From a virus (lineage: Duplodnaviria; Heunggongvirae; Uroviricota; Caudoviricetes), in IMG/VR virus record IMGVR_UViG_2851976983_000001, positions 32,001-96,000 of that record: 64,000 nt of DNA; one strand, 5' to 3'. Made by a program: the position numbers and the translations under genes. Positions 35,033 to 40,630 of this stretch are shown here, piece after piece (within the stretch, counting starts at the first letter, position 1; each line of letters opens with the position of its first letter). Below the pieces are notes generated by a model that made no database searches, was not told where the DNA came from, and worked only from the letters and a program-made list of their open reading frames with translations.

Positions 35033-36496
35033 AAATATATCCTTATACTTTTAAGCAGGGGCTGGTTTAGTTCCAGCCCCGATTGAAGTTGTTTATTCTT
35101 TAGGTGAATTTAACTTCGTTTCAAGCTCCTCAACCCTTTTGGTCAATTGCTGAATATGATGAATGAGTGGTACAACCAAACGCTCATACATCACCCCTTC
35201 AGCGACCATACCATTTGAGGAAATATCTTCTGGAGAATCATTATTTGTTGGTTCACGCCAATGGACATATTGCGGGGCAATCTCACCTACCTCTTCAGCA
35301 ATAAGGCCGTAATACCCCCAATCCTTTCGGTCACCTCGACAAATTGAACGATACCAAACAGGTCTTAATGACAAAAGTTCATCAGCATATCGATCTTGTA
35401 ATGTTTCAATATCCTTTTTATAGCGCCTTGAAGATGTTGAACGCCAAACTGTATTGATACCTGGGTTTGGATCAATGTACATATTGGCACCGCTAGTAGT
35501 TGTGCCAATATCCCATATAGCAAACCCTCCACTACCGCCTGATTTGACAACCAGTGTTTCAGCAATAATATCCAGGTTGCCACTATAGCCTGTCAGTGAT
35601 GATCTGCTTGCATAGGAACTTAGAAGGTTTGTTACCTCTGTTTTCGTGTAAGCATTAAGGTTAGCCGCAGTCAAAGTAATATCGGCAGAGCCATCAAACG
35701 CCACACCAGCAATTTTCCTTGCTGTCTGCAATTTTGTGGCTGTTGCGGCATTACCAGTAGTATTCTGATTACCGGTTGTATTCACACCAGGGATTGAATC
35801 CTTAGCAGTATATACCTGCGCCCACGCTGACCATGCCGCATCTGTGGTATCTCTTCGTGAGCGAATGAAAACTGGCGCATGTGCACCGCTCGTACCACTC
35901 CAGCCAATAAGCAACTCGCCCTCACCAGCAGCACTCGCACCTTTCATGTGCAATACGTTGCCATACGTGGTCGGATAGCTATTGTTGTACGCCTCGTACA
36001 TTTGAATGCCAGCAGTGCCTTGAGTAGAGCCGCTTAATGCCGTAACTCGGCCACGAGATACCAGTGTATTAATGTTGATATCGCCTGAGCCATCAAACTT
36101 AACACCATTGATGTTTCTCGCTGTTTGCAACTTCGTAGCTGTTGAAGCATTACCGTTCAAACTACCATTTACGCCACCAGTCACATTTAGTCCATTACCA
36201 ATTGATACCGCACCGCTGGTATTATTAATTGTAATAGGTCGCAAACCGTTCCATGAACCTAATGTGTCTCCTGATGCTGTTAGCATGAAATATGTGTTCG
36301 ATCCATCATTACGGATAAAGAACCCAAAGCTACCGTAAGCAATGCGGAAACCATTTGCATATTTTGAAATGATCTCACCAGAAGACGTTAATCCGCCAGT
36401 TAACGCTCCTCCAGATAGTGGTAAAGCTCCGACATCAGCCGCAGTAGGCTTGTTTTTAGTGTTATACGCTCTGCGCCATCCTGGTTGGATTTGCCC

Positions 36497-37402
36497 CTAT
36501 ATTTCCAGACATCTGTTATCACTTAACCCATTACAAGCCCGCTGCCGCAGATATTCCCGTGGCGAGCGATAACCCAGCGCACTATGCGGATGCCATTCGT
36601 TATAATGCTCGAACGCCTCTGCAAGGTTCTTTGCTGCCGTTAACCCGTCTGGTTTGGGCATGATACTGATGTAGTCACGCTTTATCGTTTTCACGAAGCT
36701 CTCTGCTATTCCGTTACTCTCCGGACTCCGCACCGCCGTGTTCTTCGGTTCAAGTCCCAACATCCGGGCGAACTGGCGTGTTTCATTAGCCCGGTAGCAT
36801 GAACCATTATCCGTCAGCCACTCCACTGGAGACGACGGAAGATCGTTGCCGAAGCGGCGTTCCACCGCTCCCAGCATGACGTCCTGTACTGTTTCACTGT
36901 TGAAGCCGCCGGTAGTCACCGCCCAGTGCAGTGCCTCACGATCACAGCAGTCCAGCGCGAACGTGACACGCAGTCTCTCTCCGTTATCACAGCAGAACTC
37001 GAACCCGTCAGAGCACCATCGCTGATTGCTTTCTTTCACGGCCACTCTGCCTGTATGTGCCCGTTTCGATGGCGGTACAGCAGGTTTTCGCTCAAGCAAC
37101 AGCGCATTCTGGCGCATGATCCGGTAAACACGTTTGGCATTGATCGCAGGCATACCATCAAGTTCTGCCTGTCTGCGAAGCAGCGCCCATACCCGACGAT
37201 AACCATACGTGGGCAGCTCTCCGATAACATGGTGTATACGGAGAAGCACATCCGTATCATCAGTGTGACGACTGCGGCGGCCATCCATCCAGTCATCGGT
37301 TCGTCTGAGAATGACGTGCAACTGCGCACGCGACACCCGGAGACAACGGCTGACTAAGCTTACTCCCCATCCCCGGGCAATAAGGGCGCGTGCGCTATCC
37401 AC
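36497..37402 (-). CDS. insD: IS2 transposase OrfB (InsD)
   Basis: 301 aa with DDE-type integrase core. Confidence 0.9.
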
Positions 37403-37725
37403 TTTTTTGCCCGTCCATATTCAACGGCTTCTTTGAGGAGTTCATTTTCCATCGTTTTCTTGCCGAGCAGGCGCTGGAGTTCTTTAATCTGCTTCATGGC
37501 GGCAGCAAGTTCAGAGGCAGGAACAACCTGTTCTCCGGCGGCGACAGCAGTAAGACTTCCTTCCTGGTATTGCTTACGCCAGAGAAATAACTGGCTGGCT
37601 GCTACACCATGTTGCCGGGCAACGAGGGAGACCGTCATCCCCGGTTCAAAGCTCTGCTGAACAATTGCGATCTTTTCCTGTGTGGTACGCCGTCTGCGTT
37701 TCTCCGGCCCTAAGACATCAATCAT
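37360..37725 (-). CDS. insC: IS2 OrfA (InsC), 121 aa from native ATG
   Basis: [18 protein letters not shown]...; track ORF starts at an upstream GTG (37770). Confidence 0.9.
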
Positions 37726-39269
37726 CTGTTCTCCAATGACTAGTCTAAAAACTAGTATTAAGACTATCACTTATTTAAGTGATACTGGTTGTCTGGAGAT
37801 TCAGGGGGCCAGTCTACTGGTGAATAGCTCGTCCCGTTAAATACATAGATAAACTCCGCATTAGTGAGAGCACCAGAGACACTCGTCGTTGTGGCCGTTG
37901 TTATACGGATCGTATAATTGTTTGAGCTACTACCGTTATTAAATACCTCTATAACAGCTCCTGCTAATGGAATAACGCCACAACCAGTTTCACTATTTGG
38001 TATGGTTGCACTATTGGCATAGGCCCACGCACATCGAGCAATCCATGACTTTGTGTTAAATGCTCCATTATTTTGCAATAACGTCACTAACTGTGCTGTT
38101 GTTATTGCTCCGCCATTACTTCCTGTAGTTAACCAACCAGTAGGAGATGCCGGGCAACCTATATTTGCTGGCGACAAGGAAATATTTGCCGAGCCGTCAA
38201 ACGACACCCCATTGATAGTACGCGCAGTCTGCAACTTCGTAGCAGTAGCCGCGTTGCCCGTTGTATTCTGATTACCAGTCGTATTAACACCTGGCAAATT
38301 AATATTCGCAGTACCATCAAAGCTCACGCCGCCGATAGTTCTTGCCGTCTGAAGTTTTGTAGCAGTTGCAGCATTACCAGTGGTGTTCTGATTACCCGTA
38401 GTATTTACACCTGGAAGGTTGATATTTGCAGAACCGTCGAAACCAACTCCACCGATAGATCTTGCCGTCTGCAATTTCGTTGCTGTACTTGCATTACCAT
38501 TTAATGTTCCGGTGATCCCACCAGTAACAGACAACGGACCTGAAACTGTTCCTCCGGTTGTTGGCAGTGCTCCAATATCTAACGGCGTCGGTTTCTGATG
38601 TGTGCTATACATCGTATAAACAACACCATCGGTAACGCTGGAAGGCTTACTAGCTGAATATGTTGGCGATGTATAAATAGAAACTGTCGCATTTGCAGTA
38701 CAATCCCAATGGATATTTACACGAGTCGCATAATTGCCAATCTCAACGTAAATATCATATGTATCGCCGGATGTGTTGATCCAGGCGAAATTCGTTAATC
38801 CGACAGCTGTACGCTTCCACAAAGCACCTGTAATCCCTTTGGGGTTTCCATTGCCTGCTCGTAGAACCAGTTCTGAAATGCCTGCCTGATGTGGGGAGCC
38901 GACGTTGTAACCAGCGCCACCAATCAATGCGATGTAAACGATGGAACTCGCTTGTGGCATTGTAACAGTAGCCAGTTTGAACCACCCGGCCCCGCCAGAG
39001 AAAGACATCGTTATTGAATTTAAAGTACCAATATCTTTCGGCGTTAATGTGATATCCGCAGTCAGTGCTTTCCCGTTAATTTTTCGGTTAGATGGCACCC
39101 TGCTGTTCGCATTGTCATTGACTACTTTAACTGCTTTTGGCGTTGCGGCCAGCGATTCACTGGTGCTGTCGACAGCACTGCTAAGTTTCACAACACCTTT
39201 AGTTGTAAGGCTTGCGTCTTCCATCGCAACTGCACCGGCAATCTCTTCAGCACGATCAGCAGCAGCTTC

Positions 39270-40140
39270 CGCACGGGTCGCAGCGGATTCAGCAGCAGTT
39301 TTGCTCTGAGATGCTGCCGTCGCACTGCCTGCCGCCTCTGTTGCTTTCGTGGATGCCGTCGTGGCGCTGCCCTTCGCTGCTGACGCCTGTCTGGTCGCCT
39401 CATCTTTTGAAGCAGACGCAGATGATGCCGATGACGCTGCCGAACTGGCGGACGATGCGGCTGCCGTTTTTGAGGATTCTGCACGGGTTTCCGACGCTTT
39501 CGCGTTCGTTTCGGATGTCTTCGCTGCGGAAGCAGACCTCGCTGCTGCGCTGGCCTGTTCAGTGGCTTCGCCAGCCTTCGTTGTGGCTGTTGAAGCAGAC
39601 GATGCGGCACTTTCTGCCGATTTTCCGGCGGCGGTGGCACTGGCTGAGGCCTGCCCGGCACTTGTTGACGCGGCACTGGCAGACGACGCAGCCGCTGTTT
39701 TTGAGCCTGCCGCAGCCGAGGCGCTCTGTCCCGCTGCCGTTTCAGAAGACCTGGCGTTCGTCTCGGACGTTTTTGCCGCCTTCGCGGAATTTCCTGCCGC
39801 CGTTGCCGAGGAAGCGGCATTACTGGCGCTCGAGGCTGCGCTCGTTTCTGATGATTTCGCTGCCTCTTTTGAGGCCGCCGCATCCCGGGCTGAGGTGGCA
39901 GCTTCTGACGCCTTCGTGGTCGCGGTGGATGCAGAAGTGGCTGCAGATTTTTGTGACGCTGCAGCATTCGTTTCAGACGTTTTCGCGGCACCGGCACTGG
40001 TGGCCGCCGCGCTTTTTGAGGACTCTGCAGCGGATGCACTTTGAGACGCTTGAGAGGCTTTTTCTCCAGCGGTATTGGCGCTTTCTGCTGCTGCGGCAGC
40101 ACTGGCCGCCGCCTCACGAGCTTTGTCGCCAGCAGCATCA
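39270..40140 (-). repeat. Ala/Ser/Thr-rich low-complexity coding repeats within tail fibre gene (approximate span)
   Basis: Long AAASAA/KTSETNA-type repeats in translation; source of spurious overlapping ORFs. Confidence 0.5.
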
Positions 40141-40630
40141 ATCGCGTCAGTGTTATTTTTATACCACTCAACGTTTTCGTTGTGCTCGTTGACGATCTGC
40201 ATTAGCGGCTTAACGGCCACTTCTGTACCGTCTTCACGCTCGATTGTCACCTCATCCAGAGCAGTCAACCAACTGCGCATGGACTTGGAATCAGCCGACA
40301 TACGCGACATTAGTGCTGTAAAGCGCGCGCTAAACTGTGTTAAGTCGCCTTCATAGGTCGTAATGATTCGGCACGGAACTTCAGACTGAGTTTCGCCGGT
40401 ATAAGGTTCTGAGAGAACAATGTTCGTATCACTGGTTACGCGCTTGATCTCATACAGCTTATTGTCGGGGCCAATGACGATCATCCCCGGCAACACACCA
40501 TTAGCTGTTACGTTCCAGGCTGTCCCTGCCCCAACCAGAGTATTGCTGCCCTGTGTAAATGTGATAGTACCTTCCCTGTACCACATGTTGAATATGCTCC
40601 TTGATTTGGTGGGCTATCCTTGCCCACCAT

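Follow-up and report, generated by a model that had tools for sequence, protein, structure and literature searches.

A tail fibre gene split by IS2 and restorable in silico on an SSU5-like phage-plasmid of Escherichia coli

Gene Content of the Interrupted Locus

The 64,000-nucleotide stretch analyzed here (the window; positions 32,001 to 96,000 of IMG/VR record IMGVR_UViG_2851976983_000001, a Caudoviricetes virus) carries on its minus strand a gene for a long phage tail fibre, which is divided into two parts by a copy of the insertion sequence (IS) IS2. A preceding sequence-only reading described this arrangement as a side tail fibre gene interrupted by IS2 with an intact 5-bp duplication and with an exactly restorable open reading frame (ORF). 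We followed it up by in silico excision, domain searches and comparisons with 5,426 complete E. coli genomes (at the DNA level) and with a collection of 15 billion proteins (at the protein level).

Two ORFs, of 939 and 397 aa, cover most of the fibre gene, and both IS2 ORFs lie between them. The 939-aa ORF is a chimera consisting of 923 native residues followed by 16 residues encoded by the left end of IS2 (its left inverted repeat, IRL) and a stop codon. The 397-aa ORF (35093-36286, minus strand) represents the distal fibre read from its first internal ATG, while the distal 462 fibre codons as a whole have no start codon of their own. In terms of domains, the 5' part encodes an SSU5-type N-terminal domain, an Ala/Ser-rich shaft, a repeat region and the start of a Gp34_trimer domain, and the 3' part holds the remainder of Gp34_trimer, a distal region and a Peptidase_S74 domain (restored residues 1273-1329). 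Coordinates of these and neighboring features are collected in Table 1.

The Inserted Element

The placement of IS2 in the sequence-only reading (1331 bp on the minus strand) was reproduced by direct reading and by script. The element starts with TGGATTTGCCCC at window position 36486 and ends with ...GGCCAGTCTA (also written ...GGGGGCCAGTCTA) at 37816. Its ends form imperfect inverted repeats of ~41 bp with TA...CA termini (by gapped alignment), of which the IRL (TAGACTGG..., at ~37776-37816) abuts the 5' fibre fragment and the right inverted repeat (IRR, ...CAAATCCA) occupies ~36486-36527. Both copies of the reported CTGGT duplication were found directly flanking the element, against a chance expectation of ~1/1024 for a 5-bp flanking repeat; 5 bp is the length of the target duplication produced by IS2.

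The coding content of the element points the same way. The product of orfA scores 275.8 bits against its NCBIfam model (cut-off 229; residues 16-136 of the listed ORF, which the mechanical ORF list extends to a GTG at 37770), and that of orfB scores 727.6 bits over its full length (cut-off 597). The A6G slippery heptamer is the programmed -1 frameshift site that fuses the two (PMC3299598). Over all 1331 bp, this copy is 100% identical to copies annotated as "IS3-like element IS2 family transposase" by the Prokaryotic Genome Annotation Pipeline (PGAP); 2865 records match the element at 99% identity or more. Thus, the inserted element is IS2 (IS3 family, IS2 group), with length, ends, ORFs, frameshift site and duplication all in agreement.

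As a side observation, the orfB frame is continuous with the distal fibre fragment, the orfB stop lying four codons before the junction (...NRCLEI, stop, GQIQ, PGWRRAYN..., 36486-36500); this shared frame is a one-in-three coincidence.

The Restored Frame and Its Intact Orthologues

Deletion of 36486-37821 (IS2 and one copy of the duplication) joins 37822-40586 to 35093-36485 in a 4158-nt gene of 1385 codons plus stop, with no internal stop codon, as had been proposed; the junction previously translated by hand (...FNGTSYSPGWRRAYNTKNKPT...) is identical to the scripted one. The insertion point lies after codon 923, inside the Gp34_trimer domain, and neither half of the gene carries a frameshift or nonsense mutation.

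A comparison of the restored gene with other genomes, suggested in the sequence-only reading as a check, bears out the single frame. All 4158 nt align end to end and ungapped with uninterrupted genes on 22 listed plasmids (92.9-99.0% identity; most of these plasmids are 103-126 kb in size), and 75 genomes hold at least 80% of the restored gene in one place. The closest intact allele, on the 110-kb plasmid NZ_CP027358.1 of strain 2013C-4991, is itself an open frame of 1385 codons that is 99.0% identical to the restored gene (44 nt and 8 aa differences). At the protein level, the profile phrog_3299 has 1385 positions and is covered by the restored protein from 1 to 1385 (2929 bits). The empty target is also seen, in the form ...TATTC-ACCAG-GATGG... 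with a single ACCAG, in the intact gene of plasmid pSCU-306-2, which shows zero differences from the restored gene across gene nt 2702-2880 (a 180-nt stretch) around the target.

Because full-length 1385-aa orthologues exist, the fibre gene was very probably intact when hit. The earlier statement that the fibre gene was functional before the insertion holds in this sense for the ORF, which is free of other lesions, but cannot be extended to the phage, whose adjacent J gene is split by IS100 and co-inherited with the interrupted fibre. A second, intact fibre copy in the same strain, named in the earlier reading as something that would change the functional interpretation, was also looked for: among the 25 best matches (down to 96.3% identity) no other copy of the distal part was found, and the source plasmid alone matches the distal fibre at 99% or more.

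Gene calling within this family deserves a separate comment. The fully open orthologue on NZ_CP027358.1 (extracted locus 14001-18158) is annotated by PGAP as a pseudogene "missing N-terminus" with a start 465 nt downstream, and for the pSCU-306-2 gene, too, the annotated start is an internal one; the lengths given in annotations of the 1385-aa fibre family are unreliable. Moreover, a 397-position profile, phrog_37852, coincides exactly with the C-terminal ORF (restored residues 989-1385, window 35093-36286), which suggests that a fragment stemming from the same split gene, or from a comparable mis-call, was taken into the PHROGs source data as a family of its own.

A further observation concerns the P1-like plasmid NZ_CP122822.1 of E. 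coli ETEC1731 (extracted locus 6001-6075), where an IS2-like element, ~95% identical to IS2, sits in a homologous fibre segment. Comparison with window 36435-36485 and 37822-37845 led us to reject an insertion at the same site: the element is 24 bp away, its other flank is unrelated and there is no duplication. This was a separate event, probably associated with a deletion, and its nearness to the site analyzed here reflects either coincidence or regional preference.

Table 1. Features of the interrupted fibre locus in window coordinates, followed by domains of the restored fibre protein in residue numbers.
Feature	Position	Strand	Evidence
Three small genes downstream of the fibre gene	33926..35032	-	PGAP, Pfam, PHROGs
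3' fibre part, residues 924-1385 and stop	35093..36485	-	ORF list, domain search
Target-site duplication copy CTGGT	36481..36485	.	sequence
IS2, 1331 bp, transcribed in the same direction as the fibre gene	36486..37816	-	100% identity to annotated IS2; PGAP
IS2 orfB, 301-aa TnpB/InsD	36497..37402	-	NCBIfam NF006918
IS2 orfA, 121-aa TnpA/InsC	37360..37725	-	NCBIfam NF006928
A6G slippery heptamer, IS2 position 409, transposase strand	37402..37408	-	PGAP "programmed frameshift"
Chimeric 939-aa ORF	37767..40586	-	ORF list; equals WP_024171767.1
Target-site duplication copy CTGGT (ACCAG in gene orientation)	37817..37821	.	sequence
5' fibre part, codons 1-923 and 1 nt, including one duplication copy	37817..40586	-	ORF list, in silico excision
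J 3' fragment, central tail fibre / tail tip	40679..43756	-	PGAP "phage tail tip fiber protein, missing N-terminus"; phrog_31
IS100 (IS21 family) inside J	43757..47023	+	alignment with the 2013C-4991 plasmid, PGAP
Nested IS629-like element (IS3 family) in IS100, 1310 bp, 25-bp inverted repeats, GGG flanks	45619..46928		
J 5' fragment	47024..48675	-	PGAP, alignment
SSU5-like fibre N-terminal domain	residues 1 to ~150		homology to SSU5, Cyrano and CMS-2020a fibres
Ala/Ser-rich shaft and hinge, common to lambdoid side tail fibres	residues ~150-497		61-89% identity to lambda orf-401
Segment 96% identical to phage phi458 tail protein	residues 455-771		
P1/Mu S fibre and T4 gp34 C-terminal trimerization homology	residues ~674-1200		PDB 5yvq, 8ju3, 4uxe
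Gp34_trimer	residues 907-1008		Pfam
Peptidase_S74, "chaperone of endosialidase"	residues 1273-1329		PF13884, 27.2 bits (gathering score 22)

Spread of the Interrupted Allele

Among the complete genomes, the IS2/fibre junction was found in the source record only. Searches at the protein level gave a broader picture: the exact 939-aa chimera has more than one accession (WP_024171767.1 and three MDA... entries) and occurs on 11 contigs. Four of these are 50-200 kb long (the longest on record is 100,473 bp), and ~6-kb contigs come from four drafts (GCA_003980775, GCA_003980595, GCA_049977445 and GCA_029359335) and one metagenome scaffold. Ends were read in one draft contig and in the metagenome scaffold, both of which stop in the IS2 IRL (with an identical junction) at one end and in IS100 at the other. 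Fifteen contigs, including one of E. coli CE418, carry the 397-aa ORF. Since a 939-aa chimera is possible only with this very insertion, its presence on 11 contigs indicates that the interrupted allele has become fixed in a circulating E. coli clone, in which the IS2 and IS100 insertions are co-inherited. The insertion had been called recent, which holds only in that no secondary lesion has accumulated; it is not private to this record, as the unchanged chimera is shared by several assemblies and one metagenome.

Domain Composition of the Restored Fibre

By its matches, the restored protein is a mosaic fibre. Its best phage matches are the fibres of Escherichia phages Cyrano and CMS-2020a and Salmonella phage SSU5. 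The shaft is related to lambda orf-401 by BLASTP (61% identity over 149 aa and 89% over 80 aa), with nothing aligned before lambda residue 205. The region at residues ~674-1200 contains several copies of an NGNA(S/A)TATKLQTAR...FDGS motif, and the Mu S and T4 gp34 structures match restored residues 790-1033. No NCBIfam family was found for the fibre protein, and PF08400 (phage_tail_N) gave no match in the restored protein at E<=0.01, as compared with 251 bits for lambda orf-401.

The name "side tail fibre" used in the sequence-only reading is therefore appropriate in part: it is supported by the position downstream of J and by the shaft homology, while the PF08400 N-terminal domain and a downstream Tfa gene are missing and the protein ends in Peptidase_S74. 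On these features, the fibre does not qualify as a strict Stf/Tfa family member.

Antisense ORFs of up to 326 aa are present opposite the Ala/Ser-rich shaft (window 38941-40356, plus strand). They are a by-product of the GC-rich GCN/TCN codon repeats and not evidence of genes; lambda orf206b is a comparable antisense compositional ORF.

Host Element and Downstream Genes

A 600-bp probe of the left junction has one 100% full-length match in the genome set, NZ_CP025870.1, i.e., plasmid p503829_100, a circular molecule of 100,470 bp; its host, E. coli 503829, was obtained in India from human stool. Window coordinates equal NZ_CP025870.1 coordinates minus 3716, and the window is p503829_100 or a near-identical copy. 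The annotation of this plasmid comprises RepB, ParB-type maintenance genes, dnaE, a CobT-like protein, RecA, DNA ligase, PhoH and a tRNA, together with a complete siphovirus morphogenesis block running from terminase, portal and capsid to the tape measure, L, a C40 peptidase, a tail assembly protein and J. The order of tail genes is tape measure, M-like, L, K (C40 peptidase), I and J, followed by the fibre. The combination of plasmid gene content with best phage matches to Cyrano, CMS-2020a and SSU5 identifies the host element as an SSU5/pHCM2-family phage-plasmid. A chromosomal lambdoid prophage is rejected, the record being a circular plasmid with RepB/ParB and with SSU5-type fibre matches. 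Phage-plasmids of the pHCM2/SSU5 family have been described in enterotoxigenic E. coli (ETEC; PMC8085198), and strain 503829 is a CS6+ ETEC isolate with heat-stable toxin (PMC9954033). The literature found on this strain consists of that physiology paper, with no description of the plasmid.

The three small genes downstream of the fibre encode an 84-aa protein (phrog_557, outer membrane protein), a 202-aa protein (phrog_425, membrane-associated moron) and Cor, an exclusion lipoprotein; no gene for a Tfa-type chaperone was found downstream of the fibre, and the 84-aa and 202-aa ORFs have no Pfam match. Should these three genes share a transcript with the fibre, IS2 could be polar on them. In phages phi80, N15 and T1, the J protein uses FhuA; by analogy, the presence of cor suggests that J of the p503829_100 phage may use FhuA as well.

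Other observations concern the plasmid beyond this locus. Outside the window (NZ_CP025870.1 84226-87517 and 92865-97097 regions), p503829_100 carries chromosomal-type metG and apbC genes and a second IS100. The latter is flanked by truncated DNA methylase and AAA ATPase genes, suggesting an IS-associated deletion; although IS sequence contributes ~6.5 kb to the plasmid, its relatives are ~10 kb longer. A 52-kb plasmid of the same strain also carries a 100%-identical copy of IS2.

The Neighboring J Gene

The J gene next to the fibre is also split. Its 3' fragment is colinear with the intact J of NZ_CP027358.1, and alignment with that 2013C-4991 plasmid delimits an interruption of 3.27 kb between window positions 43757 and 47022, occupied by IS100 with a nested IS629-like element. 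IS100 is flanked by ACGAT (43752-43756 and 47024-47028) and bounded by terminal repeats at 43756-43784 and 46996-47024; its end positions are uncertain by 1-3 nt, with an 8-nt overlap at the junction. In silico removal of the IS100 composite yields a J frame of 4725 nt and 1574 aa without a stop, 95% identical to the intact 1541-aa J and differing from it by 33 residues in repeat length. Like the fibre junction, the J/IS100 junction is confined to the source record among the complete genomes. Each of the three insertions found in the tail-tip region is a simple one that can be reversed on paper.

In pSCU-306-2, otherwise the nearest relative around the junction, J is interrupted as well, in this case elsewhere in the gene and by an element of the IS3 family (extracted locus 15778-16989); IS insertions in J recur independently among SSU5-like plasmids.

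Discussion

The interrupted fibre gene is very probably the product of a simple IS2 insertion. IS2 transposes via a figure-of-eight and a minicircle, in a copy-out/paste-in fashion that leaves direct repeats (PMC3299598). In the proposed scenario, a single transposition of this type would have placed an intact IS2, with the usual 5-bp duplication, into the 1385-aa fibre gene of an SSU5/pHCM2-family phage-plasmid. By entering after codon 923, within the gp34-like trimerization module, the element left a 939-aa stub and a distal part of 462 residues with neither promoter nor start codon. The fibre gene would have been intact at that time; neither half has decayed since, and the allele is inherited by a whole E. 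coli clone. With J also knocked out by IS100 and its nested IS629-like element, the phage-plasmid is now kept as a plasmid whose adsorption apparatus would be disabled twice over, presumably under relaxed selection on virion genes during plasmid-style inheritance.

The expected effect on the fibre follows from its C-terminus. Fibres of the S74 class (endosialidases, T5 pb1) need the C-terminal chaperone to trimerize and fold, and the 939-aa stub, deprived of it, would by this analogy be non-functional, i.e., a probable null allele.

Nothing contradicts the insertion itself, but some parts of its interpretation are less firm. Selection on the fibre may have been relaxed already before the arrival of IS2, if IS100 struck J first. 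Both a working intact fibre and an inactive stub are read from sequence, and the S74 requirement of this particular fibre is carried over from the work on endosialidases and T5 pb1. Among the complete genomes there is no sibling plasmid with a 100%-identical empty site, the best intact allele being the 99.0% one, and 33 of its 44 differences sit in a 124-nt patch around the insertion site (restored gene nt 2751-2874; window 37713-37836 and 36481-36485). That the patch was brought in with IS2 by recombination was considered and rejected, as pSCU-306-2 has the same variant uninterrupted; the patch is ordinary allelic, recombinational mosaicism not linked to IS2. Moreover, as pSCU-306-2 combines this variant with a single ACCAG, the empty target exists in nature.

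Among other explanations, the strongest holds that the phage was already dead, IS100 having hit J first, so that the fibre was unselected when IS2 came and its loss was neutral follow-on decay. The J/IS100 insertion has gained a nested IS629-like element, which makes two successive events at J versus one in the fibre, every draft contig with the IS2 junction also ends in the J/IS100 junction, and the second IS100 of the plasmid is flanked by truncated genes; on the other hand, none of the 5,426 complete genomes carries just one of the two insertions, which leaves either order admissible, and neither gene shows a secondary nonsense or frameshift mutation. The absence of such mutations from both genes implies that all the insertion events were close in time on a mutational scale. 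We consider this order of events a serious possibility while stopping just short of calling it probable.

Selected domestication, in which the loss of both adsorption proteins was favored (for example, because it put an end to making or releasing virions at a high or lethal cost, or kept progeny from adsorbing to sister cells) and turned the phage-plasmid into a plasmid that this ETEC clone inherits stably, is in our view unlikely. It would account for two of the three independent IS insertions in the backbone falling within the ~9 kb of J and fibre on a plasmid of ~100 kb, for the unchanged persistence of the disabled plasmid in many isolates, and for the occurrence of IS elements also in J of pSCU-306-2 and in S of the P1-like ETEC1731 plasmid. 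These numbers are tiny, however, and long genes are large targets; insertions in replication and partition genes are purged, so that survivorship bias explains the pattern; a knock-out of adsorption stops neither induction nor lysis, which makes a benefit doubtful; and most relatives keep intact genes. Large, tolerated targets (long non-essential genes) are enough to explain the pattern. The more specific proposal that the J and fibre knock-outs were a selected step locking an SSU5-like phage-plasmid into a purely plasmid lifestyle in a successful ETEC clone is to be viewed as quite unlikely. A weaker variant, that the gp34-like module of mosaic fibre genes is a regional hot spot for IS2-family elements, is raised by the unrelated P1-like plasmid, whose IS2-like element has the same orientation and a position that differs by 24 bp.

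Naturally separate proximal and distal half-fibre genes (as T4 gp34 and gp37), with IS2 between them and a fortuitous single frame, might be imagined from the insertion into a module homologous to the T4 gp34 C-terminus and from a PHROGs profile equal to the C-terminal ORF, but are excluded for practical purposes by the uninterrupted 4158-nt frame of the relatives and by the position of the insertion inside Gp34_trimer (907-1008) rather than at a boundary, the 66 codons from the junction to the ATG of the 397-aa ORF being open and conserved as well. Misplacement of IS2 into an actually intact fibre gene by repeat mis-assembly, conceivable for an element with 100%-identical copies at 12-15 chromosomal places in strains 503025 and 503440 of this lineage (repeats can be misplaced in assembly), has a negligible probability, because independent assemblies share the junctions: the same fibre/IS2 junction recurs in independent short-read drafts and in the metagenome scaffold, the chimeric ORF is also present on four contigs that are 50-200 kb long, and a perfect 5-bp duplication flanks the element.

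The simple IS2 insertion thus favored is an ordinary case of pseudogenization by an IS, i.e., routine phage decay rather than a new system. None of its components (IS, duplication, fibre family, host element) is new, and annotations of both the IS and the gene fragments already exist in the public record; what is added here is the phage-plasmid context, the clonal distribution of the interrupted allele and the double disabling of the adsorption apparatus. A practical consequence is that the 939-aa and 397-aa "proteins" of the databases each represent half of a single fibre gene of 1385 aa; in the same way, the J pieces of 1035 aa and 555 aa belong together as one gene. Surveys of phage-plasmids should count p503829_100 and its siblings as defective, adsorption-incompetent elements spread vertically with an ETEC clone, for which both IS junctions could serve as clone-specific polymerase chain reaction markers. 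More generally, IS insertions in tail genes can persist without further decay.

Comparison With Known Systems

The disruption itself corresponds to classic insertional inactivation by IS2, as in the polar gal and lac mutations and in IS2 mutagenesis of phage P1: the element and the outcome are the same, and the sole difference is the target, a tail-fibre gene on an SSU5-like phage-plasmid.

Lambda Stf (orf-401 and orf-314, split by a frameshift in lambda PaPa) resembles the fibre analyzed here in its location downstream of J in a lambda-like siphovirus tail module and in the Ala/Ser-rich shaft with its fibre-repeat hinge (61-89% identical), and both copies are disrupted yet restorable. Unlike the lambda Stf/Tfa system, the present fibre has no phage_tail_N domain (PF08400), no Collar domain and no Tfa gene (Caudo_TAP, PF02413); over the distal half it is similar to P1/Mu S and T4 gp34, and an intramolecular S74 chaperone presumably aids its folding. 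The Stf of Ur-lambda has 774 aa, which makes the restored fibre ~1.8 times longer.

The S74 fibres and spikes (K1F endosialidase and the L-shaped fibre pb1 of T5) share with it PF13884 at the extreme C-terminus after a long trimeric shaft, while the remaining architecture is unrelated, and S74 autocleavage in the present protein is a prediction from the domain match.

Further counterparts are the fibres of the SSU5/pHCM2 family (SSU5, Cyrano, CMS-2020a and the pHCM2-like plasmids of E. coli), which occupy the same position after J in the same type of genome and share N-terminal identity of 58% (SSU5) to 87-90% (CMS-2020a and Cyrano). This copy differs from them in being interrupted, and the distal parts are mosaic between plasmids: the pSCU-306-2 fibre has the first 3640 nt in common with it and then continues into a different C-terminus devoid of the S74 domain.

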